Assembly (NCBI GenBank): GCA_030141605.1
Contig: JAQGDQ010000072.1
Span: 372,001 to 436,000 of the forward strand
Direction of reading: 5' to 3'
DNA: 64,000 bases
Origin: Tubiluchus corallicola
Taxonomy: Eukaryota > Animalia > Priapulida
The notes under the pieces were generated by a model. It was not told where the DNA came from and searched no databases. It was given only the letters and a program-made list of their open reading frames with translations. The position numbers were made by a program, and so were the translations under genes. Of the stretch, positions 4,669-63,125 are shown one piece after another. Positions within the stretch are counted from its first letter, which is position 1; each line of letters opens with the position of its first letter.

Positions 4669-7600
4669 ATGCCTGAACTCCTAAAAATCTCCATCATTGG
4701 CTCAGGAAATTGGTATAGTATTATGTAACCGTTTTGTTGTAAAAATATTGAATTATACTGTTTTATTTCCACAGTTCAGCATTAGGCCTTCATATTTTGT
4801 TATTTTTGTCAAATTCCATCAGCAAACATTTACTCTTTATAGCCTAGGTACAAAAACTAGCCAGCTGATATGATCACAACATACAATACTTTAATTTTAC
4901 AAGTGAAGCAAGTTGAGAGTCAAAGAGACGTCAGTACATTAGATGTTTTAACTTTACTCATCTTTGCACTTTACAATAAATCAAGCAAAAAAGTTCAACG
5001 TTGTGAAGTATTAAAAATTATCGTATGTGCCCTAACATCTTTTCTTTCTATCCATATTGACATGAGCTGGTCCTATTGCAAGTAACACTTAAGAGTTATG
5101 TTAGTACATAACACACAAGAACTTTTATTTCACACATATTCGAGATATACGGATTGTAGTCAGTTAACGAATAAAGAAGTAGGGTGACGAGTAACCCTTT
5201 AGCCGAAAGTAGGACACTTCCGGTAAAACGCATGTGCTACATTTGCGGAAAAGCAGCGTCGTACATGGGTAGCCCAAGTAAGGCACTGGCGATTTTTGTG
5301 GAGAATTGAGAATTATGATGACATAATAAAACATAAAACTAAATTTGTTTTACAAAAAAAGTAACTTTATAATAATGATGGATGACAATTTACAAAATTA
5401 ATGTATTTTTTACAATATATCATATGATATAATACAGTATCATCAGTATTATTAGCTCCATTAAAATCATCATAACATTAAACTAAGTATCTAATGCTTT
5501 AAAGAGAGAAACTATGCACACAATTATTACAGAAATAATTGCAATTTTAAAAATAAGACGGTTGGATGCTAAGCCTTCACAACATGAAAAATTAATTTTC
5601 AACTTTTTAGGAAAAGCAAGGACAATTAATTTTGTAACGTGTAAGGCTCTGTCGTACATGGCTTGCTAGCCCATGTAGAGCACATAGGTCGCTAAAACGC
5701 TTACTTAGGAGAAAACAATTATTTGTCCAAGAGATAGTGAAATGGATCACCTGTCTGTGAAGCGAGACAAATTAAAAAATGATATACCTTAAACAAAATT
5801 TAATGTTGAATTCGCCTAAAAAGTAGGTTTATTTCACTTCAACAACATTAATATCGAAGCCAACTTTAATAGTGTCTGTTCTAGCAGCTCAGAATAAAAT
5901 TCTTTTATTTTATCAGATGTATAATAAATTATTCAACGTGTATTGACGTTTTTAATTATTATTATTATTACATAAACCAGGACAACGGACGGTGCCAGTA
6001 TGCTTAACAACTCAATTCACGACCTGTCTCTAGTGTCCTACTTGGGCAGCCCATGTACGACACATCCTACTTGGGCTATCTCATGTAAGTCACTTGTCGT
6101 ACTTCGGCTAGTGGGTTACTCGGCGCCCATCAAAGATATAAATAGTGTGGAGAAAGGGACTGACCATACGGTCTTTTACTCCTTTCCCCTATATAAAGTG
6201 AAATAAATAATTTTAATCAGTATTGTAGACAATAATAAAGTTATTTTTCACAAATACAATATAATGGTGTTGTTGTTTTTTTGTTCTTTTTTTAATTTTA
6301 GTTTTATCAGTAACTCCTTTAATAAAATTTTAGAATTTTAATAAAATAATATAGAAGCCTAAATTACAAACAGAAATTGTAAAACCACTGGTGTTTACTT
6401 TTCTTGAAAATTCCAACAATTTTACTCAGTTTAGTAGAAATATAAATAACATTTATACAAAGAATATAAATTTGAGAAAACTAATCCCAGCCAAAAATTG
6501 GTTTCTTTTTGTCCACTGAACTTATATCAAAGGTTAAAAACCAAGTTGCCAAAGCCTTGTGTGCGGTAAACGTGCTGTTTTGCTGTTTCTCCACAAAGAA
6601 CAAAAATGTCCTCATGGCTGCTTACAAAACCTATGTTAGGCCACTACTTGAATATTGTATGCCAGTGTGGTCCGTATCATATGCTGGGCATTGATGCTAT
6701 AGAGACAGTTCAGTGATATTTTACACGCAGATTATTTGCCCATTTTCAACTTGGTGTTTTTAACTATTTGGACAGGCTGCATATTTTAGATTTACAATGA
6801 CTTGAAGTGAAACAAATAATTTTTTATCTTAAGATGGTTTATAAAATATGCCATAAATTAGTAGATTTGTCATTTGATGATTTCTTTTGTTATGCTTCCA
6901 CCCAAAATTTACGTAGTCACAATTACAAATTGTTCAAACATTATTCTAAATTAGGTGTATACAAATATTCATTCGCAAATAGAGTAGTCCCTATCTGGAA
7001 TGATCTTCATTATGGCATGGTTAATGCACCAAACATTGCCATTTTCGGCAGTAGGCTAACAAGCTGATTTTAATCGTATTATGTAACCTATTTTTTCTTT
7101 ACTGTATGTAGTGTCTAGCTCCATGTTAAGTTTCTTTTAAGGTTTTTCTGGTTTACTGCCCATGTATTTGCGATTGCAAATATATTGCAAATTACTTTAT
7201 ATTGTATTATATGACTAGCATAAGTGCTATGTGCCTGCTGCCATTTTTTTTTTATAAAAATGTAATTATAAGTGTTCTTAAATAAAATAAAAATAAAATG
7301 TATGAGGTACAACACACATTCACATTCAGCAGACAAGAATAACTTTATCATTGCTTTAGTTTGCTGCTTATTAGCAGTATTATTAAACTACCTAATAATT
7401 TTGGGTAACTTAAATTGCTGTACATTTGTAACATTTGCTTACTAGTAATTTTACCAGTAAGGCTGCAATTTATGTTCAAATTTCCTATTATGCCACTTTT
7501 AATGTCGGTGAGGCATAACCAATAAAGCTGTTAATTAAGTTTTAAATATACGGGTGTTTGAACTAAGTCACCTAAATTCATGTAATTTATTCTGTTACAA

Positions 7601-10600
7601 AAATTATTAACCTAGGAATTATTGGGCAATAGTACTACAACAACTGATATAAATATCTTATGGTACTTCCCAACATATTCTTTTGTATTGTATTGTGCCT
7701 ATTGATGGATCAATATAAATACACAGACTATTTGCATTTGGTGATCAGTTGAACTTACCAGAACTAAACAATGCCCACTTCGTGTGTACCAATGAGGATT
7801 ATTGTGCTGGAAAAAAAGTGAAATTGTGGAATTGTTGTTTGCACATGTATGTCATTGTTTGCGTCAGTGCCAGCACAAAAATAATGCAACATTATCACAA
7901 GTGCCGCTCTTGTGTGTATTGCCTTGCTTTTTCGCCTGCCCCGAATACAGAAAGTCACAATTTTCCATGCACTAAAAATCGCCAACTGTGATCAATGATG
8001 TTGCCTTATAAATTATTGCACTAATAACTTTAAATTTATTTATGTTTTTCACTGGAAACTGGTTTTCCATCATGGGTCCGATCTTTAATTTGTTTATACC
8101 TGATGCAACAGGATATATAACTAAAAAAGGCCTATTGAAAGTACTGCAGAATATGTATGCCAACAAAGTCTTGTTTAAACATATACAAAATATTTGTAGT
8201 CATTCATGCCTCTAGTGCATGTGTGCCATTTCAGTTCAGTGTTTAAACCTTTTTCTATTAAGGTGGGCAGTCAGATACTGCTACCTGGCTGAAACCGAAA
8301 GAAAATTAACAAAAATAGTATTTGACATTCATGCTGCTTCTTCCATAATAAAATTTTTCCATAATCAATATTTTGAAACAACTACCTGATGTGATTTTCT
8401 AATGAAGCACCTACCCATAATAGGCAATGTGATAGAATAACAAAAAAACTAATAAGTTTTCTAATAATTTTTCTAAGTCCCAACTGCACTGAAAAGTATA
8501 GTAATTTTTCGCTTAACAGATCCCCGAGCTCTGAACGTTTGCCATGTGTTTTCACTTAACGCCACATGTTTTCATTTTTAGCGAAGATTTGCTGAAATTG
8601 TAAGGTTCAATAATTTTTATTTTTGCCTAAATTGAATTGCTAAAACACTAATTGTTGTTTTATTTGATTCTAAAAAACTGCTAGTGATGTAAAAGCCAAT
8701 ATTCATTAAGTTTTTTGTTCCTACACTGTTTAAATGCATAAAAAACTATTTTCAATTTGCACTATGTTAAATTAATACAAAGAATTCTGTCTGCATTAAT
8801 TACTAGGGCAACTGGTGTCTAGATGAAATTAGCCACCAAAATTGACCACTCTTTATAGTGTATGATTATTTCTATTCTAACCTTTCTTTTTGAGAGCAGT
8901 ATTTTAGTAATTATGTGTTTGTTCCAGGGGTTCAGCAATAGCAAAAATTATAGGAAATAATGTTCGCCATTCGCATAAATTTGATCACACAGTGAGGATC
9001 TTTGTCTATGAAGAACTTGTGGATGGACGAAAGTTGTCTGAGATTATTAATACAGATCATGAAAATGTTAAATACTTGAAGGGTGTGCATCTACCTGACA
9101 ACGTGGTAAGTTTTTCTTTGCACATTTAAGCAAGGTATACAATAAATTATATTGTGTATGTGTAATTGTGTATGCTGTATGTAATTTTTGTTTGCAATGT
9201 GAACAGATTAGGAGTCTATGCTCCTGTTTTGCTGTAATTTTGTGGATATTTGCTGGCGATGATAGTACATTTGATTCATCTATCAAATACACTACCTTCT
9301 TTTATCAAAAATATCAAGGTTGAAAAAATCAGCACAATCTCCAGGGATTGTCAGTGAAATTAGCATTTGCTACAGTGCTAGTAATTTGTTTTACACTTGA
9401 CGTGCTAGAGAAAAAGGAGTTTAGATGGTCTGAAATATAACATAGCAGTTCTGTCATACATTGAGCAAAAAGTCTTGGAAGGATCTTGAACCTAGTAAGT
9501 TTTATCTTATTCAATGGGCAAACTGGCATAGGTAAGGTAAGGTAAAGTTAAATTTATTTTATTGCATGTAGGTGGCTGTGCCAGATCTCAGAGCTACGGC
9601 TAAAGATGCTGACATTCTTCTTTTTGTTGTACCGCATCAGTTTGTTAAAACAATTTGCCACCAAATGGAAGGAGCTGTTAAGCCAAATGCGATAGGATTG
9701 TCTCTAATAAAGGTACTTGCAGTATTATAATTATATAAATATGAAATCATTCTTACTTAAAGTGACCTTTGTTCACTAAAGAGTTTCTCTGGTTGTTTCT
9801 CATTTGGACTGTGGACAGGCCATTGGTGATTGGAAATAGTTCTTGCAATCTGGTGCTTCTGCCTTTAAACCTTTGAATGTTTGGTAGCTTATAGCTGTAA
9901 CTGTTTGAAGAAATTTGGCCAATAACAAGGTAGTAAAAATTTCGGAAGTTTCTATGTAGTTCTAATTTGATGTAGGCTTGTGTTTTCTTCATGCTTATTG
10001 TTAGAATAAAATAAATAGTAGATAGCATAATACAAATCAAAATGTAAATGTAGTGAGCAAGACTGGAATTTATTTCACTAAATTGTATAGCTTTTTTCTG
10101 TTGGTTCAGTGATTCATCCAAGAAGCAGAACCTTGATATGGTGTAAGGTCCAGGTCTTGCCACAACCATCTAATGTCAGTAGAATCTGCCACTAAATGTT
10201 GCATTCAGCTTGCAGGATTCTGAATTGTAACAAAAAAGTAACAGTAACATAAACAGTAAAGAATTGTTGTTAATTTTACGATCTAAAGTATCATGTCATG
10301 GTTTTCCAACTTTGCAGGGTGTAGATATCAATGAAGCTGGACTCGTGTTGATGTCACACATTATAGAAAACGCTTTAAAAATTAAAGTTAGTGTATTAAT
10401 GGGAGCCAATCTTGCCAATGAAGTTGCACAAGAAAAATTTTGTGAAACAACTATAGGTAAGCTAGCTGTGGTGACCAGAGTAATTTTAAATTGTGCCTGT
10501 TTTCTGGAAGCAACTGGCTGTCATTCGTATGTTCTAATGAACATTGTCTTTATGCGCAAAACTAATCAACACCCCATATACGTTATTGAATCTTTTTGTA

Positions 10601-13600
10601 ATGGACGGTTGAAAAGATTATTTGGAAGTGACCAAGTACATTAAATCTTCGAAGATATATTGAAAGAACTGCTACTGATAAATAAGAAGTTGATCACATG
10701 TACTTCAACTGTTTGGGATATTGTAAATATTACAAGCTTTACTGTCACACAGGTATTGCTACTGTGAATTATTTAAGCAACTTGACAGTGACTTGCACAT
10801 TCTGTAATTTAGAGATGAATGAACTCTATGTTCCATTAATTTATCATGTCTCACTCTACTCTGTGACTGTGGCTAATGAGTTATACCTCTGTTTATCCCT
10901 TGTGTCTTTATCTGCTGTATGTCTGTATTTCTTTATACGCTTTATTATTATACTTCTTTATTATCTTTTTTACTTTACTATGATATCCTTTTTTGTGTTA
11001 ATAGTATAAACAAGAAACTTCCTTCCAAAAAATTAGTTCAGTAATTTCAGTAATTCCTTGTCATTTTTTCTCTTTATCTATCCTTTTTTGCTTACCTGAA
11101 AAAGAATTACAGTGATATTTTGAAATTTTGTATTTTTTATTATGCATTGTCACTATTCACGTCTTTGAGAATTAATCTGTGATAAATGTTTAGTGCACTA
11201 GCTGCAGCAAGCATGGCAAACAATTCAGTATCAAGTGACACATGAATATCATTTAAGACAACAATTTTGCATAAATGTTTTGATCATGAGTTTTCAGTAG
11301 TTGTAAACCCTATTTTGTATGCTTGACATTTTGGTTGGTGAACTGGTTCAGCTTTGTAGCTATTGTCTTCTTTTGACAGTTTTTAATCCTGAGTTCTGAT
11401 CTTTTTAGGATGCCGGGATAAAGATATTGGCGCATTATTAAAAGAGATGTGTCAGACTCCATATTTTCGTGTTACAGTTGTGGATGATGTGGAAGCTGTG
11501 GAACTGTGTGGTGCTCTTAAGGTAGGCCACTGTTTAATATAAAATGTCTTCATTTAACACTGCCTTGTTATTTATCCATTTTCTTTTCTAACAGTTAATG
11601 TTCCAAGCGTTTTACTATACTGTTTTGCCATATTTAAAATATAAAATTTTGTTTTTCTCATGTTGAGGAATCCTCTAGTAAGACACTTCTGCAGTAGTTA
11701 TACACCTGTTTTCTGACAGAATGTCGAACACTGTCAACTGTAAATGCGACTTGGCTTGTTGCTAGAGCTCATTTGCTACTTAAAGACACCACTGCTTTTT
11801 CAAATATAGTTAATTTGTTCAACTGACGTTACAAATAGTCTTTTTAGTTGTCTCTTAGGCTATCTGATGGTCAATGCAGGACAAGCAACTAACACCAAAT
11901 GCAAAATAAAACTGCAACACCAAAAGTGTTAAAAATGTGTTTGAAATACGAAATTAACAATGTATTACTCTGATATGTGCAAAGCATCTATAGAAGTACC
12001 TATAAGTTTATAAAAATGTATTTATCTTTTTATTTAATGATTTATTCGCCTCAAATCAATAAAATGCTCTAGGGCTTTATAATCAGAAATAGAAAAAAAT
12101 ACATCGTAATGAACTTGAAAATTATTCACTACAATAAAGGTAAAAAAGCATAATTACATAATACATACAATACCGTTGTACAGATAAAATGCAAGACATA
12201 ATGGAAATCCAGTTTAAATTAATTTGGTTTACAGGTTAAAAGCTTTTTCAAATAAAAAGGTTTTGAGGAGTGTTTTAAAAATAGATAGTGGCTCTGACTG
12301 CCGTATGTGAATAGGTGTTTGATTCCACAATAGAGGAGCCGGACGGATGAGAATGACCATCCTCCACAAGTGACTAGTTTTGTTATAGGTTGGACCAAGT
12401 TCATTGAATTTGCTGAAAGCAAACTATGTTGTGGAGTATCTCATTAAATTAATTCTTGAAGATAATGGGAAAATTAATCAGTTGTAACAAATAACTGTAT
12501 AACTAGTGTATAGGTACATACAATAAAAAATAAAAATGTCATAAGTGTGAGTAAAATAACACTTGAAATTCATACTAGTCCCAGTCTGAAATTAGTGTAA
12601 AATTTGTTAAAACCTAAAATGAGATTTAAAAACTTATAATCCATCTAAAATATTGTTATATTCCAAATTGCAAGACTTCTCTTTGTAGTAAATAAAATAG
12701 GCATGGCTTTAGACATAAAATAAAATAAAATAGCTATAACTGTACAAATAAAAATATAAGTTTTTGTTTAGTAAAGCTAATGTATAGTTGTACTACGAAA
12801 CCGGAGCACTTGATATAGAACTATTAACAACAGTGTTGTGCTTAGAGATTGTATAATGGTTGCTTCAACGGACTGAGTAGTGAAACTAAGTTTCCAACTC
12901 TCTATGTTTGCTTTGTTATAACTGCTTCCACACAGTTAAATTACATTGTTGATGTTTTGCTTGTTACTGTCTGAGTGTTTCAGCTATTTATAAATTTAAC
13001 TTAGAATGTGATAGCTGTGGCAGCTGGGATAACAGATGGTTTATCACAAGGAGATAATACAAAGGCAGCTGTCATCCGGATTGGGTTAATGGAGATGATA
13101 AAGTTTATAGAACTCTTCTATCCTGGTAAGTAAATAATTTTGCTAAATTACTTTATATAGACATGATTATAATAATATTTGATTCTGTTGTTGAGATATG
13201 CTGACTTCTCTGTATAAGCTCTTTTACTTATGTATGTGACTAAGACACGTTATGTGGCATTTATGTTACTTGAACTTTCTCATTTTGTCAAAAAATAGTT
13301 TGTCTTTACTTTTCTGGAATTTTTTGAAGTAACATATGGGCCTGATGAACACCGAAATTTCAAAATCGTGGAACAATATCATGTACTGTCAAACCTGATA
13401 ATAATGCTCCCCTTTGTAATATCAACTTCACTTAATGCCCAAATTTTTGGCATTGCTTACATTTGTGTAGATATGTTTGCAGTAATGCCAGACTCGCTTA
13501 ATGGTAACTTTTTTGCAGAATTTGCACTCCCCAAAATAGGCAGTATAAAGAAGTTTAACCCTAGATACTCTTTATACCGTTGAACTCATTACAAGCTGGC

Positions 13601-16600
13601 CATCCAGTTTTCAATGGCATGCCCTACCTGACATTGATGTTAGTGCAGAGACGAGGGCCTGGCTAACCCTTGAACAGGCAGTGGTAGCTTAGCCTCGTCA
13701 GATATGAATATATCCTCCTTGTATGAGCTCTGGGAGCTAGAATCACTATGGCTAGTGAAACTGTCTGGAATGAGTGCTGAACTTGGGCAGTTATGAATCA
13801 TTCAGTGATGTAACTCAAGTGGTCAATAAAATTACAAGTCAAAAATAAAAAAAATAATAAAATTAATTAAAATCTCTCTAGTGTGAGTGATTGGAAATGC
13901 TGAATTTTGTTTGCCATTTATAAGCATTGAACATTGGGCTGCCTCGATTACTGGGGACAGTACAGTGGCCGAGTAATCTAAAGCATCTGCCTTGCATGCA
14001 AAAAGTGCCTGGTTTACTATTTTTTCAACTTCATATGAAAATTCAATTCACTGTGAGTTTTTATGATTATCAATGATAACGTTGATGATAATATGCCAAT
14101 AATAAATGTTGAACATTGTCATTGAACATTGCCATTAAAGTTATAATGACTAGGGTTTCAAATGCCTAGTCATGGCAGCTTTGATGTTTTGTGTCATGCA
14201 TATAATGTAATTTTAATGTTTTTGGTCAAACATTCCAAATTACTTGATGGGGAAACTTAATATTCTTAAGGAGTCCATCAATGTACATGAAATTATCCCA
14301 GTGCGCTACCAGATCATGTCAAGAAAATCACGGATAAAACTTTTACTAACTTTTAAATTTTGTTTTGAGTATTTGTGCAGAATTTTGTTAATTTAAGAGC
14401 TTGCAGTTGTATTAGTGCAGTTAATCTTACACTTAAATAACTCACAGAAAAAATCTTGAGAGCTTTTAAATGTAGAAAACAAAACAGTATAAAATTTTTC
14501 TGTGCTTGATTTACTGTTGCAGCTGTTTCCTTTTAATTTACTTTTCTTGGCTAATACTGGAAACTGGTACTAGAGTTTTGTGATTAGCAACTTTATAATA
14601 ACGGTCTAAATTTCTTACCATTCTTGTGGATAAAATAGTTGTGAGAAATAAAAAATTAAATTAAAAAAAAACAAAAGAGTATTGGACTGGTAGCTATATG
14701 AGATTAACAACATTAAACTTGATCATTTCTATTGAAATTTGTGAGTTTGTGTACTAACTACTGCAATAATTGTTTGAAATTTGTTAATATTGACTTTGTA
14801 TTTATTTACAGGTTTACACTTTCTTTTGGCTGTTGCTGCATGGCTGTTTACTTTCTGTGTACTGTTTCTTTTTGCACTTGATGCTTTGTGTTTTCTGTAC
14901 TGAGAAAATTTTTGTAATTTATATTTCATATTTCTTTACCGCTTTAGGCATGGCCTCAACATTTTTAGTATCTCAGCAGTTTGCACCAATGCAGCATATT
15001 AAAGTTTAGTGTATGAAGTCTGCAAATGCGCTAAACAGTGAAAAGCATAGTACTAAATATCATTAGTAGTTCTCTACTACAGTAAGCCCTCGCTTAACGA
15101 CTCTCCGCTTAGTGACGCTTCGTTTTAACGACGCTGAACATTTGACACCTTTTCCTCTCTTAACAATACACTTTTCATTTTAACTATGTTTCTTTTTTAC
15201 TTTGCTCAAAGTCATTTTTTATTTGAGCAACAACTTTTCTTACGATATTTGAAACACTAAAACAGTACATACTGCATTCTTCCATTCTAAAAACACACTA
15301 GTAATGTAAAACAGTACAATTATTATACGTTTTTTTTATGACTGGCTGCTAAATGCGAGCCATTTGTATCGAGCGTAATATAATCTATTCGCGATTTATA
15401 TACCTCCAGGCACTTGAATACAAACTTTAGATAAAGGAATTTTGCCCGCAACCTGGTTTTATAGCTAAAAAACTAAGCATCTAGATGAAATTGTCTCAAA
15501 GTCACTCCATTGCTTGGCTTTCATTATGCGGTGTTTCACCACTGAATTTAACTGCCAAATATTGGTAAGAAAGATCAGTGGTTTCAAGCACGCAGCAAAA
15601 AATTAATCGGTAGAAACATGAGTTAACCCATAAAACATCTAATTTGTATGTTTAAAGCAGCATTGATTGTTGCCTCTGGTATGTATCTCACTTCTTTTGC
15701 ATTACTTTCTTTGGAAGCCTTGGTTTCGTTTAATGGCGTTTCGCTTAACGCCGTGTTTTGCTAGAATGCATTAGCGTCGTTAAACGAGGGCTTACTATAC
15801 TTCTTTGTTTGTCTAAACAAAGTTGATTACAGCAATAACATGATATTACAATGTATTTGCTAGAATGGCTGAACTTCACAGGCAAGTTTAATACCCTATT
15901 GAGAAGTTACTAACTTTACAGATGTTGAGAGACTAACAGAACTTGAGAAGCCATTCATCGAAGACAGTATTACTTATACTGTGTCTGCAAACATCATATC
16001 AAATTAGTTTAATTGCTTAAACCTGATTTCTAACCATGTCTTATTTGCTTAACTTCCAGACAATATTTTCCTTTCATATCTGAGAAAATAAGTGCCATTC
16101 TACAGTTAACTATTTTTAATAACCGTTTTATTTTATACTAAACTGCTGTGCCAGTGATATTAAAATATGATACCTACCTTCAGATCCCTTGCACAATTTG
16201 CATATGCCATATTAAAGTAAGTATTGTCAGTCTCAGATTCTTGTGCATCTTACATAAACTTCAGTTATCTTGCTTTAGAAACCAGAAACCACAAATTCAC
16301 AGGAGCATGGTTGCTGTGAAGTACATATACCCTAGCTGTAGTGTCTGCCAATTTATTTTTTGCATTATCTGCTCATTCCACTGAACTTTGTTTTGCAAAT
16401 TTGTTTGATAAGCTGTGTGCAATTTCTAACCTTTGATATTAATTTTTGTTTGGCTAATCATAAGTTCATAATTTTTTGGTTGCAGTTACCATTTTTTGTG
16501 TAATTTAGTTAGTGTTAACATCTGAATATTTTTGCATTACTACCATGAAAAGTACCATTAACCAACACTTTGGTCTCTTTTACAAGTGTGTAGAAGTTGA

Positions 16601-19135
16601 TTTTCACATCTGTGGAACATGTAAAAAATAATTTGGAAAGTTCCCAACAGTGAAACAATGAGAGTTTCTTTACATATTTTTCTTATATAGACTAGAACTA
16701 AATCGGGAAAAGATGCGTTTATAATATTCTAGTGCCATTTTTTCTAAGTGAGCAACATAACCAGTTTTGTTAATTTGACTATGCTGAATCCGAAAAGAAA
16801 ACTATTATTAGTTTGAAAAATTAGTAGAAAACGGTCAAAAACAAAAAAAGAATGCAAATGTCTGCCAAGTTTTAGCACAGACTGTATAAATCAAAAGAAA
16901 TTCCCAAAAAACTAATACTGAGAAGCGATTATGACATCATCCCAGGGTAGCTGGACCTAAGCAATCCATCTCTGTTACTTTTATTTCAAAAATGGCAAAT
17001 GGCTACCTCACAAAACAAAATCTTGCCAATCGTGCAATTATATTTAATTAAGATGTTTCATCTACATTTATTATAAAAACAAAAGGCAAATTATTTTTAT
17101 CAGTTCAACCTTGTTGAGTAAAAAAAACTGCTAGGTACCAAAAAGGACACAAAAATAGTAAACCAGTCCAATAATCAAAAACTAAATGGCCACTGAGTGT
17201 TTGACATGTAGCCCATGATAATGGTTACAGGTGAACAAGTTTTTCGCTATTCTGCCAGATTATATAATGTAGGAAGCCTAGTGGCCATTTTGTTTTTTTA
17301 CTTATCAAACTATTTAAGTCACTTTGTATCCATTTTGGGGTCTAGAAGCAGATTTTTAGATGAAACAAATTGGAATAAAACTGGGATTGATAAATATAGT
17401 TGCTTTTTGTTTTTATAATAAATCTTTGTGTGAAACAGTTAATATAATTGCATATCGGCATAATTTCTGTTTGTGTGGTGGCTATTTTTGAAATAAAAGT
17501 AACAGAAATGGGTTCATTAGGTGCAACTACCCTGGAATAGATGTCATAATCACCTCTTAGAGTTAATTTTCAGGACTTTCTTTGGATTTATATGCTTTGC
17601 ACAGAAACTGGACTGGTCATTTTTATTTTTGGATTTTTGGTCTTTTTTCCACTAATTTTTCAAGTTGGCAACATTTTTTTTATTCAGCATGGTCACATTG
17701 GTAAAACTGGCTACTGTTGAACCCTTTTTGGAAAAAAAATGCGTAGCTAGGGTTCCACTTTTCTGAAAATTCGTCTAGTCTGCATACAGTCTGCATACAC
17801 TTATTTTTTCTTTTGCGGCAATAAGCATGAAACTTTTAGAGTTCTTACTTTATGTATCTTTAAAGTTTTTGTAGACTAACTGTAAACAAAAACTATTATT
17901 TTTGTCTGAAGGTTAATTTTTCAAAGTTTTGACCAGCTCCTGCCCAGTTTTCTATTTACTCAAATTCGGCTACTGATAAGACACTGCAGCTAGGGTGAGC
18001 CACTAACACGCTGTTTTATTGCGCTTTAGGCCGTGACAAATTCATCTATCTGCAGTCATGCGGAGTAGCCGACATAATTGCTGGATACTGCGGTGGTACA
18101 AACTACAACATGACTCGGATATTCTTTGATACGCGCAAGGTACGGTTTTCTTTTTTGTCGGCCATTTTTACACGTTTTCTGTTTCTATAGGCTGTAGCAC
18201 AGAAACATTTCTCGAAAGCTGTGGAATCGCTGACTTGGTGACAACTTGTTATGGTGGTCGCAATCGACGATTAGGAGAGGCTTTTGTCAGGACAGGGAAG
18301 GTAACATAGTGCCACTTGTAGGTGCCTTTGAAAATTCTTTTTGACAGCCCTTTAGTACTGACAGTATAAATTGTTAGTAAATTTCTGCACCACTATATAT
18401 TTATGGTTCCATCTAGACATATTTCTGCATCAATTTACAATATTCAAAGAGCTGAAGGAAAAAAGTAGAACAAAGCAAAAATATTGCAAAATTATTTTAC
18501 ATATGTGAAACTGACAAAAAACTTGATTTCTTAAAAGCATTTTATTTGCTGTACCCGAATTATGCTGTAGCACTTTTGGTATGGTCTAGTTTGTGTCTTG
18601 TGTGAATTTTATTCTGTTTGCTGTTTCTAGAGCTTTGCTGAGTTAGAACGTGAGTTGCTAAATGGACAAAAATTGCAAGGACCTACAACTGCAGCTGAGG
18701 TGTATGAAATGCTGAAAATACAAAAGAAACATGACAAGTGGGTATTCCATATTGATTAAGTTTGATTTGATGATGAATGATCAAATTTTGCAGTTTTTGC
18801 TGTCTTACAGAGATAATATACTAAGTAGCATATTGATAACAAGCAATTTAACTGAGTAAAAGATTTCTAAAACTTCGTTCAGTATATAACATGCATGCTT
18901 TCACATTGACCTTTTCCTGTCGGTTTAGTTTTTGTTTTCAGTGAAACCCGCTGAAGGTCCTGGGTTTTAATGCTATATTAAAATGAATTTTAGTTAAACG
19001 TTACTATGAACCATGACAAAGATTTCCATTTGTTGCAGGTTTCCTTTGTTTACTGTTATACATCGAATTTGTTCTGAAGGTTTTCCACCAGAAGAAATGA
19101 TAAAGTGTTTAATGAGTCATCCAGAGCACATGTAA
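4669..19135 (+). CDS. GPD1: Glycerol-3-phosphate dehydrogenase [NAD+], cytosolic (GPD1/GPD1L family), 349 aa
   Basis: Exons 4669-4712, 8928-9105, 9572-9712, 10318-10456, 11409-11521, 13005-13125, [18030-18139 or 18191-18300], 18631-18737, 19039-19135; all GT-AG, phases consistent, 1050 nt in total. Motifs [87 protein letters not shown]. Confidence 0.97.
5182..6128. mobile_element. MITE / non-autonomous DNA transposon in GPD1 intron 1
   Basis: Imperfect TIRs GGGTGACGAGTAACCCTTTAGCCGAAAGTAGGACA and TGTCGTACTTCGGCTAGTGGGTTACTCGGCGCCC; repeated AGCCCA(A/T)GTA subterminal motifs; no coding capacity. Confidence 0.75.
6520..7080 (+). mobile_element. 3' fragment of a CR1/Jockey-group LINE
   Basis: Peptides [36 protein letters not shown] are typical of a LINE ORF2 C-terminus; contains stops. 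Confidence 0.8.
12030..12430 (-). mobile_element. L2-like LINE 3' end fragment
   Basis: Minus-strand GGWSFS..(A)PLLWN-like remnant, FKKLL, then an AATAAA-containing tail. Confidence 0.5.
15080..15797. mobile_element. Tc1/mariner-type (pogo/Tigger-like) MITE
   Basis: TIRs CAGTAAGCCCTCGCTTAACGAC and GTCGTTAAACGAGGGCTTACTA, flanked by TA on both sides (15078-79, 15798-99). Confidence 0.85.
16689..17781. mobile_element. Foldback-type DNA transposon with long degenerate TIRs
   Basis: Ends AGACTAGA and TCTAGTCT; internal inverted blocks, e.g. 16927-16996 (GATTATGACATC...CTGTTACTTTTATTTCAAAAAT) versus 17481-17551 (ATTTTTGAAATAAAAGTAACAG...GATGTCATAATC). Confidence 0.75.
18030..18139 (+). CDS. GPD1: GPD1 alternative exon 7a (divergent copy): (G)[36 protein letters not shown]
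   Basis: 110 nt, same length and phase (1 to 0) as exon 7b; tttag acceptor, AAG|gtacgg donor, CTAAC branch point at 18003-18007; open frame; 13/37 aa identical to 7b. Confidence 0.85.
18191..18300 (+). CDS. GPD1: GPD1 exon 7b (canonical copy): (G)[36 protein letters not shown]
   Basis: 110 nt; ctatag acceptor, AAG|gtaaca donor; carries the family motif [12 protein letters not shown]. Confidence 0.97.
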
Positions 19136-22676: not shown

Positions 22677-47892
<25,216 letters not shown>

Positions 47893-52049: not shown

Positions 52050-54620
52050 TCAGTTCAATCGATTTTATTTCTTCAACATTCGATTCACGTTATAATATTA
52101 TAGATGTAGAATATTTCAATTACAATTGAGTAGGAGCAGCGAACGACCAATGGGCATTAACTCAGCTGCTTCTTTTTTAACAACAGAATTTTTTGATAGA
52201 CGCAAATGAAAAAGCAAATAAAAAATGTCAAAGTGTAAATATCTTATATCTAACAATCCAAAGGTAAAACAAAAGGCAAACGAAAATCATAAATCAGTTC
52301 AAAGCAAAGCAAAACAAAAAGCAAGCGAAAAATCAGCTCAAAGCAAATGCGAAACAAAAGGCAAACAAAAAATAAAAATATCAGCTCACAACAAGGCAAA
52401 CAAGAAAACGGCTTATATCAAAACTACATGTATAAACATAAATGGCTAACAAAAAATTAACATGAATATGACACAGGGTTCTAGCAAAAACAATAAAACA
52501 AAGCAATCATGTGACATGCTTATACACTAATTCACAATAATTTTGTTGAGTTAATTTTATTACACAACCTTCCACGTATTCCAAAAACAGAAAGCTCATT
52601 TACTTCGCTTCACATCTTTAACTTTTTAAAGAACGCGTTCATATTCTGCATAATAAAAAGAAAACTCATGGTAAAAAATTAACAAGCAATTAATATTATT
52701 CCAATTTTAACGTAGCAATCAAGGGCAAATTTCCTAATTTTCTGTAAATTCAATATTTAGCTATTAAGTTATTTCTTTAAACAATTATCCTCTGGACTAT
52801 TTTGTAAATGTCACATTATGAGTACTTTTCGATTAAATAGTTTTTGTACAATTTAATTATTTGCAATAAAGATCTACAAGAAGTTATTGAACATCTACAT
52901 TATTCCAGAGTTTTGCCCCATTGTGTTGGAGTGTATTAAGACCAAAAGATGTTTTTAATCGTTATTGGTAATAGAGACCACCTGTTGCTGCTCCAGTTCC
53001 ATAGGAATGAGCATCTCTAACTTTTTGAAAGTAATTTTTATATAGCGTTAATAAAGTGCCGTTTTTATATTTAAACATAAAACATTTTAGCAGTTCTAAA
53101 TTGTATACCTCTATGAGCTTTAGTAGTTTTAAGTGTTAGTAAGAAGGCGTTGCTCAATCTCTATATGAAGAAAAAGCCATGCATTTCACAATTTTATTTT
53201 GCACAGTAATTAGTGGTTGAAGAGTAGTGACTTTGCTCTTCCCCATGATAGGATACTATAATGTAGATAATTATGGGGATATTAGTGCATAGTAGATTGA
53301 TAACAGTGCTTTCGATTTTATAAAATGTCTTATTTTAAAGAATATACCGATTATCTGTTAATTTTTAGTGTTATTGTCTATATATATGTGTTTGCCATTT
53401 CATATTATTGTCTACAAAAAACCCAAAATATTTTATTGATGTAGCCTATCTGAGTTCGTTGTTATCCATTTTTTTAAAGTAAATGGTATAACTTCATTTG
53501 AAAATGATATACCACTGATTATCATGTACTTTGTTTTTGAGTAGTTAACAGATATTTTGTTGCTTTTCATCCAAATTGATATCTTCTAAAGTTTCTCATT
53601 CATTCGTAGCTGAAGGCGTTTTATGTCCGAGTCACTAAGGAATAAATTTTATGTCGCCTGCAAAAAGACGTGAATTAAAAATTGAAACAAGGGGCATACC
53701 ATTCATGTAAATAAGGAACAATAATGGTACTAGTGTTGAGCCTTGCAATATTTGACAGTTCATCTTAAGAGGGCTAGATGAATTGTTTTGCACACCTGTA
53801 TGTTGTTGTCTGTTAGTTAGGCACCTTGTTAATAATTTTATTGTGTTTCCCCTAATGCCGTAATGGTCAAGCTTGTGTAAAATTATGTCGTGGGAGACCA
53901 AATCGAATGCTATGGATAAGTCGAGAAAAATTCCGTATGTGTAAATTCGATTATCTAAGTTTTTCAGCATATTTTCAATAAGTTCGGCTGTAGGTATGGA
54001 TGTTGAGTGGTTTTTTCGGAACCCAAATTGGCACTTTGAGAATATACTGTAAGAATTTAAGAAACTGATGAGGCGGTTGTAGATAACACTTTTGTAAACT
54101 CTTGATATTGGTGACAGCATGAAGATTGGACAATAGTTTGTTGGGTTTTCAGGTGAGCTTACTTTGAAAATAGGTGTTGCTCTTGCAATTTTTAGAAAGT
54201 CAGGAAATAGTCCCTGCATAACTGATTGGTTAAAAAGTTTGGTTAAGATAGGAACAAAAGCGAGCTTATAATGTCTGATACGAATATTTTCATGACCAGT
54301 AGATTTTGATTCGTTGAGCTCATCTATTTAGCTTTTTAATTCGGCTACTGTCACTGGGTAGAAGGCTATTGTCTTACTATTTCTGTTTGTTAAGTACCTG
54401 TCAAAGCTAACTGAGATTGGTGGAATTTTTTTAGCCATGTTTTCTACAATAGATTGAAAAAACTCATTAAAGGTGTTTGCAATTTCCAGTTTGTCTGTAA
54501 TTATATACTGCCATTGTGTTTGTTTGGTAAAGTTATGATTTGATTGTTTTTTCCAATATCCTATTGATTTTTTTCCAAGTCTTTTTTATATTATTATTAT
54601 GGACTATAAATAAATTTTCA
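52050..54620 (-). mobile_element. Decayed CR1/L2/Crack-group LINE with 3' UTR
   Basis: ORF 53635-54219: LKIARATPIFK, QFGFRKNHST, GIFLDLSIAFD, HYGIRG, QGSTL; downstream IYYALINPH and IWGK remnants; AATAAA and TTGAA-type tail near 52050-52070. Confidence 0.85.

Positions 54621-56528: not shown

Positions 56529-63125
<6,597 letters not shown>

Follow-up and report, generated by a model that had tools for sequence, protein, structure and literature searches.

GPD1 links glycolysis, NADH re-oxidation and glycerolipid/glycerol synthesis. Alternative splicing is common among the known animal isoforms of this family (GPD1/Gpdh), and in 20 of 20 isoform pairs the differences lie at the N- or C-terminus or at one residue, none in exon 7. 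Changes to an enzyme core by mutually exclusive exons have precedents: exons 6a and 6e of coq-2 switch the substrate of the enzyme (PMC7434440), and nine mutually exclusive exon events at catalytic sites have been listed (PMC7954323), in a main text whose available part makes no mention of glycerol or GPDH. Five other papers deal with GPDH expression, splicing events or testis paralogues and, in the portions available, report no exon of the kind described here, the bee and C. elegans event types being left unspecified there (PMC11545850, PMC11677483, PMC11481726, PMC2265522, PMC7560327). Our literature search, whose scope excluded subscription journals and supplements, found no comparable exon event in GPD1, and the case below appears to be new for this gene.

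The window, a stretch of 64,000 nt, carries on its forward strand an animal gene for cytosolic GPD1 with nine exons (coding span 4669-19135). Seven junctions of the gene model were taken from a spliced contig of run X1, which we guess to be RNA and which comes from a relative (about 5% of coding sites differ from the window; all but one of the 16 listed differences tested are synonymous), and the last junction from tblastn with GT-AG checks. The contig joins exon 1 (coding part 4669-4712, from the ATG, with the GSGNWG NAD-binding motif spanning the junction), exon 2 (8928-9105, Pfam PF01210), exon 3 (9572-9712, whose last codon is the K120 equivalent), exon 4 (10318-10456), exon 5 (11409-11521, which ends on the K204 equivalent), the constitutive exon 6 (13005-13125, with a phase-1 donor), the canonical active-site exon 7b (18191-18300, both junctions seen; Pfam PF07479, E 1e-9) and exon 8 (18631-18737, with the LNGQKL loop and Q295), of which the acceptor lies in the contig and the GT donor was checked. 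Exon 9 (coding part 19039-19135, through the stop codon) falls outside the contig and was placed by tblastn with its AG checked. The protein of the 7b form has the features of a cytosolic NAD-dependent GPDH (PF01210 and PF07479, K120, K204, D260, T264, R269, N270 and Q295) and is about 66% identical to the best full-length homologues, frog and crustacean GPD1; in quick trees the GPD1 protein of the window fell in no supported clade. The equivalents of K120, K204, N205 and Q295 are encoded outside exon 7. Elsewhere in the window, a Spin-doc zinc finger/hAT-type transposase occupies 31986-33866 (+) as two long open frames split by a stop, a BEL/Pao-type retrotransposon lies at 34271-38313 (-) in several frames (DUF1759, reverse transcriptase, Peptidase_A17), broken LINE pieces with endonuclease and reverse transcriptase matches are found at 43622-46353 (+) and 53638-54327 (-), and a GA microsatellite of about 600 nt sits within 61700-62380.

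Upstream of exon 7b lies a diverged duplicate of it, exon 7a (18030-18139). The preliminary description had pointed to two 110-nt exons of the same phase with GT-AG sites, 51 nt apart, and this is what the locus holds: AG precedes 18030 and GT follows 18139, just as AG precedes 18191 and GT follows 18300. The CTAAC branch-point consensus reported for 7a is also present, 27 nt before the 7a acceptor and followed by a pyrimidine tract and AG (18003-18029); it is the sole exact CTAAC within 45 nt upstream of the nine acceptors of the gene. The 7a acceptor tract has 13 pyrimidines out of 19, and the donor matches the U1 consensus at six of nine positions, the same as the 7b donor. Within the 4.9-kb intron 6, 7a is the only stop-free AG-110 nt-GT candidate in that phase, and the intron that separates it from 7b (18140-18190) measures 51 nt, against 301 to 4904 nt for the other introns of the gene by their coordinates. 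A single DNA contig of run X2, a run of unspecified kind that may be the source of the window itself, covers 18051-18625 with zero differences. We considered an assembly artefact or mis-join as the origin of the tandem, which is unlikely since the copies are 44% identical in nucleotides and one contig covers both. The two exons are thus tandem, homologous, equal in length and phase and flanked by valid splice sites: a real and unusual exon duplication in GPD1.

With either 7a or 7b alone, the message encodes 349 amino acids, and the two isoforms are identical at 325 positions (93%), with 24 of 349 residues differing. All other combinations are stopped early, as had been anticipated: inclusion of both exons or of neither shifts the frame, with premature stops at codons 299 and 249, respectively, and if the 51-nt intron, which closes with an in-frame TAG, is retained, translation stops at codon 299. 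The stops of these three forms fall upstream of later junctions, and a doubly included message would presumably be removed through its frameshift stop by nonsense-mediated decay. The short intron had also been suggested to force exclusivity sterically. Steric exclusion has been placed at a threshold of about 50 nt from branch point to donor (PMC7969005), and the candidate 7b branch adenines lie 25, 31 and 33 nt from the 7a donor, with all possible ones at 33 nt or less, so that a steric block would be expected by that measure; the threshold of about 50 nt is not universal, as three loci of the set described below (L023, L053 and L060) have an intron of about 55 nt at the exon 6/7 position. Read from the sequence, then, the layout would force exclusivity through frameshift stops, and splicing itself is presumably mutually exclusive, although the junctions seen are those of 7b alone.

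How the duplicate alters the protein is largely as first described: on alignment to human GPD1 chains, 7a carries T263A, T264G, R269T and R271Y and keeps D260, G267, G268 and N270. Two details need correction. The identity between 7a and 7b, given as 35%, is 12 of 36 residues (33%) and reaches 35% only if the junction Gly is counted, and the residue numbers match human GPD1 from about residue 247 onwards but not before (human K120 and K204 are K121 and K205 here). Relative to the human chains, 7a keeps S255, C256, G257, A259, D260, G267, G268, N270, F277 and T280 and lacks T251, E254, T263, T264, C265, R269, R271 and E275, each of which occurs in at least 96% of 211 homologous segments (at least 98% for each of E254, C265 and E275), the segments having been collected with a pattern that fixes S-C-G and A-D-L by construction. 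Of 321 homologous segments, which come from 309 of 334 proteins, 317 have Arg269; two of the four exceptions belong to a single protein in which partial segments are repeated. Arg269 and the second-shell Thr264, both residues of the active enzyme, are replaced by Thr269 and Gly264 in the 7a form. An ESM feature search still reads 7a as a GPDH C-terminal domain (score 0.91), and a Pfam search with the 7a peptide gave no match. Restoration of the arginine by A-to-I editing of the Thr269 codon was considered and is impossible by the genetic code. In five multi-domain GPDHs (P0003, P0004, P0005, P0006 and P0142) the active-site segment of one repeat is degenerate, which may be a parallel to a weakened GPDH at the scale of a whole domain.

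The consequences of losing Arg269 have been measured in the human enzyme. R269A lowers kcat/Km 4.5-million-fold (4.5e6) and leaves reduction of the unphosphorylated glycolaldehyde undetectable, with or without phosphite, and N270A raises the glycolaldehyde kcat/Km from 0.05 to 2.0 per M per s (PMC12874384). According to the published enzymology, removal of R269 costs about 9 kcal/mol of transition-state stabilisation together with the domain-closing phosphodianion grip. The preliminary description had counted Thr264 among the residues that contact the substrate or its phosphate; in that work T264 is instead a second-shell residue bonded to K204 with no phosphate contact, and R271 goes unmentioned in the available part of the source (PMC12874384). 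By these data, 7a lacks a residue needed for both reactions and keeps the one, N270, whose loss favours the phosphate-free reaction, which argues against the proposal that 7a makes an enzyme for non-phosphorylated substrates; an inactive isoform is likelier than a glycerol or dihydroxyacetone (DHA) enzyme, because R269A both abolishes detectable glycolaldehyde activity and cuts kcat/Km (PMC12874384). We therefore predict that the 7a protein has no activity on DHAP or G3P and is probably no enzyme for glycerol or DHA either, with the qualification that 24 simultaneous changes could remodel the pocket beyond what single variants predict. Such a protein would probably fold and bind NAD(H), judging from the NAD-binding domain, K120, K204, D260, N270 and Q295 that it keeps. 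For the further proposal of a dominant-negative dimer partner, nothing in the analysis offered support.

At the nucleotide level 7a and 7b are identical at 48 of 110 positions (44%), with 16, 20 and 10 matches out of 36 at codon positions 1, 2 and 3, and 7 of the 12 residues common to both use different codons, one of them a TCA/AGC serine pair. The third positions are saturated (10/36), indicating that the duplication is old. Exon 7a has a GC content of 46% and a GC3 of 53%, the highest among the ten exons, with a GC of 33% in intron 6; the CpG observed/expected ratio of intron 6 is 0.43, and it rises to 1.2 in 7a and to 1.9 in the 51-nt intron. Neutral decay was modelled by simulation, starting from family-like ancestors with an assumed AT-biased mutation model, and runs with 11-13 identities were compared. 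In simulated exons at this matching identity, the frame and both splice dinucleotides survived in 1.5-9% of runs and a GC of at least 46% in 2-3%; a stop-free frame alone arose in 20-29% of neutral runs, fewer with indels, and at an assumed rate of one indel per 20 substitutions the length stayed intact in 2-19% (an extra factor of 0.02-0.19). Since an intact frame, splice sites and a high GC seldom survive together in the simulation, 7a is unlikely to have decayed neutrally from the start, although the simulation rests on the assumed mutation model and indel rate and does not distinguish a live exon from a recently dead one. The residues that 7a keeps are no better than neutral decay would leave (family-profile score, P 0.24-0.88), and its hydropathy pattern (correlation 0.5) gave P 0.07-0.17 against neutral; the evidence for selection on 7a therefore lies at the level of the exon and not, directly, of the 7a protein. 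Altogether, the description of 7a as an old, selected exon holds for its age through the saturated third positions, and it is probably selected as well, given that frame, splice sites and GC persist beyond the neutral simulation. Divergence from X1 is lower in exon 7b (1 of 109 sites) than in six other coding exons (37 of 791; P about 0.04), a weak hint of regulated splicing.

Folding predictions, a point that the preliminary description does not raise, set 7a apart from the other exons of the gene. The whole exon has a predicted fold of -34.6 kcal/mol, matched in stability by 5 of 2000 dinucleotide shuffles (z -3.4), and 7b and seven other exons stay at |z| below 1.2 (400 shuffles each, exon 1 left out). 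Its core (18050-18118, a window picked after the fold was seen) is predicted to form a three-way junction of 26 pairs, each with a probability of at least 0.78, in which the diverged codons 263-275 pair with the conserved codons 253-261 or with one another, the Thr269 codon lying in a loop; 14 of the 26 pairs are retained with the letters of 7b. Two core pairs checked in 300- and 500-nt contexts kept a probability of 0.75-0.85, and against synonymous randomisation 7a, one of nine exons tested, gave P 0.02. In a scan of the whole gene, 7 of 735 windows had z below -3; the grid windows overlapping 7a cut the structure and scored -2.0 or weaker. Taken as a whole, the 381-nt region has an ordinary stability (z -1.0), an Rfam search found no match, and none of the 25 longest of 163 inverted repeats provides docking-type long-range pairing to 7a or 7b. 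A weak hairpin (z -1.55) is predicted at 18170-18215, where the 7b pyrimidine tract pairs with the start of 7b and has an unpaired probability of about 0.17. Intron 6 also holds a long degenerate inverted repeat 300 nt upstream of 7a (16758-17713; several arm pairs, 72-96% complementary), which is probably a non-autonomous transposon and could fold in the pre-mRNA, and an element at 15078-15799 with 27-nt inverted ends and a CpG-rich interior, which is probably repeated in the genome since its X2 depth is high.

The preliminary description had proposed that junctions around exon 7 and copies of 7a in other genomes be sought. The sole spliced contig, that of the relative in X1, runs from exon 6 to 7b across 7a and from 7b to exon 8, so that the exon 7 junctions seen are those of 7b only. 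No X1 contig at 85% likeness falls on 7a; contigs drop rare variants and show presence, not absence. The X1 depth in the 7a bin is 40.9, with 40.88 expected from the 7b contig alone.

The search of other genomes gave no orthologous copy of 7a, in a set from which close relatives are absent. Of 204 stretches confirmed when metagenome contigs were scanned with the 7b frame, the best 80 were kept (identity 54-66% in the 16 loci measured). More than one aligned piece came from 30 of these best 80; a second exon-7 copy above 6 bits was found at none of the 80, whereas 7a scores 11 on the same profile. The phase-1 intron that separates exons 6 and 7 is present in six of the 80 loci (L076:6002, L078:6059, L029:452, L023:1090, L053:1061 and L060:6005); it is the precondition for duplicating exon 7 alone, and other genomic loci, L005, L006, L020 and L026 among them, are without it. 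No duplicate exon 7 was found in this intron of L076 (2.2 kb) or L078 (0.9 kb), or in 450 nt of that of L029. Protein searches with the 7a peptide returned nothing related, one giving three candidates, none of them scored; a pattern search gave 596 matches, none confirmed, and another search four long multi-stretch matches, of which the one examined (P0123) is a repeat protein. None of the full-length homologues favoured the 7a over the 7b model, and among the cluster members of 20 proteins no exon 7 with a recognisable motif was aberrant; the motif went unmatched in two short fragments and three fungal proteins. As the isoforms are 93% identical, a 7a form could go unseen under a 7b representative after clustering at 90% and 50%. 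Exon 7a is known from one genome.

Our main reading, to which we give a probability of about 0.45, is that 7a is a minor, structure-gated, mutually exclusive exon making a pseudoenzyme or off-switch. An old tandem duplication of the active-site exon of GPD1 gave rise to 7a. By default exon 6 would be joined to 7b, as seen in the relative, to yield active GPD1, with 7a repressed by its own fold despite its full splice signals. In some tissue or condition 7a would be included, the 51-nt intron and nonsense-mediated decay keeping the two exons exclusive, and this choice would skip 7b and produce a 349-residue protein with an intact NAD-binding domain and no phosphodianion grip. Such a protein may lower flux through the G3P shuttle and glycerolipid synthesis, or serve as a non-catalytic partner. 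For a pseudoenzyme, the loss of catalytic residues is observed, and the pattern of fold-keeping residues is not significant. A bolder version is a long shot: the self-folding exon would act as a structure-gated switch whose opened fold yields a GPD1 with a new pocket and no phosphate grip, fit for a new job (acting on another substrate, or regulating the G3P shuttle as an NAD(H)-binding protein), and the same gating base pairs would also have driven the amino-acid changes of the active site.

Several of the observations above could also be accounted for if 7a were a relic, an exon long under selection or shielded by its closeness to 7b and now silent or a splicing by-product. The relative's spliced contig uses 7b, the residue pattern of 7a is indistinguishable from neutral, 7a agrees with the family consensus at 13 of 36 sites and 7b at 25, and no orthologue of 7a was found among the best 80 of 204 loci, which include no close relative. 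However, length, frame, donor, acceptor, branch consensus and high GC are all intact, which leaves a short interval since any loss of function, and we hold a relic to be unlikely. The fold opens a different account, in which 7a works as RNA, a structured decoy or competing exon tuning the 7b message, with a peptide that is mostly a by-product of pairing constraints. The high-probability pairs of the core linking the most diverged codons to conserved ones or to one another, the partial retention of these pairs with 7b letters, the low whole-exon z-score and the elevated CpG ratios of 7a and the 51-nt intron are consistent with this. An RNA role would nevertheless have no need of an open frame of exact length, one that is free of stops in just 20-29% of neutral runs, and the fold is a prediction from a single sequence, with a core chosen post hoc and no Rfam match; we rate it as rather improbable. 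The least supported reading is that of a new substrate, in which 7a would remodel the pocket for an unphosphorylated triose, glycerol or a differently charged carbonyl, as exons 6a/6e do in coq-2 (PMC7434440). The carbonyl-side set K120, K204 and D260 stays, together with N270, while the phosphodianion arginine is gone, and the gain of N270A on glycolaldehyde at a nearby residue lends it some plausibility (PMC12874384). Yet with R269A glycolaldehyde reduction is undetectable, with or without phosphite (PMC12874384), N270 is kept in 7a, the conserved-core residues T264, E254, C265, R271 and E275 are lost, and no enzyme with a 7a-like motif appeared in Pfam or among solved structures (the eight best matches are all GPDHs), which makes this reading quite improbable.

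If 7a is used, the choice of exon by itself would decide whether GPD1 yields an active enzyme or a full-length product that is inactive or re-purposed, a situation that mirrors in nature the much-studied R269A variant, and the locus would offer a compact test of RNA structure driving protein divergence in a duplicated exon. If 7a is silent, the exon is a relic in good preservation and of modest interest. Among described systems, fly CG42249 and PKM1/PKM2 share with it duplicated exons that alter catalytic or regulatory residues (PMC7954323). OGDH exons 4a/4b and the steric exclusion of the alpha-tropomyosin type resemble it in a branch point that lies about 50 nt or less from the donor upstream, too near for joint inclusion, but there the branch points are mapped and distant and the intron longer, whereas the whole intron of GPD1 measures 51 nt and its branch point is a candidate one (PMC7969005). 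In coq-2, as here, two internal exons of equal length exchange residues of a metabolic-enzyme core; both coq-2 forms, however, are active, abundant and kept across four phyla, whereas 7a has lost the main catalytic residue, belongs to one genome and lies beside an exon whose junctions alone were seen (PMC7434440). On the side of the protein, the human R269A variant lacks the phosphodianion-gripping arginine just as 7a does, by an engineered single change where 7a alters 24 of 349 residues together (PMC12874384).
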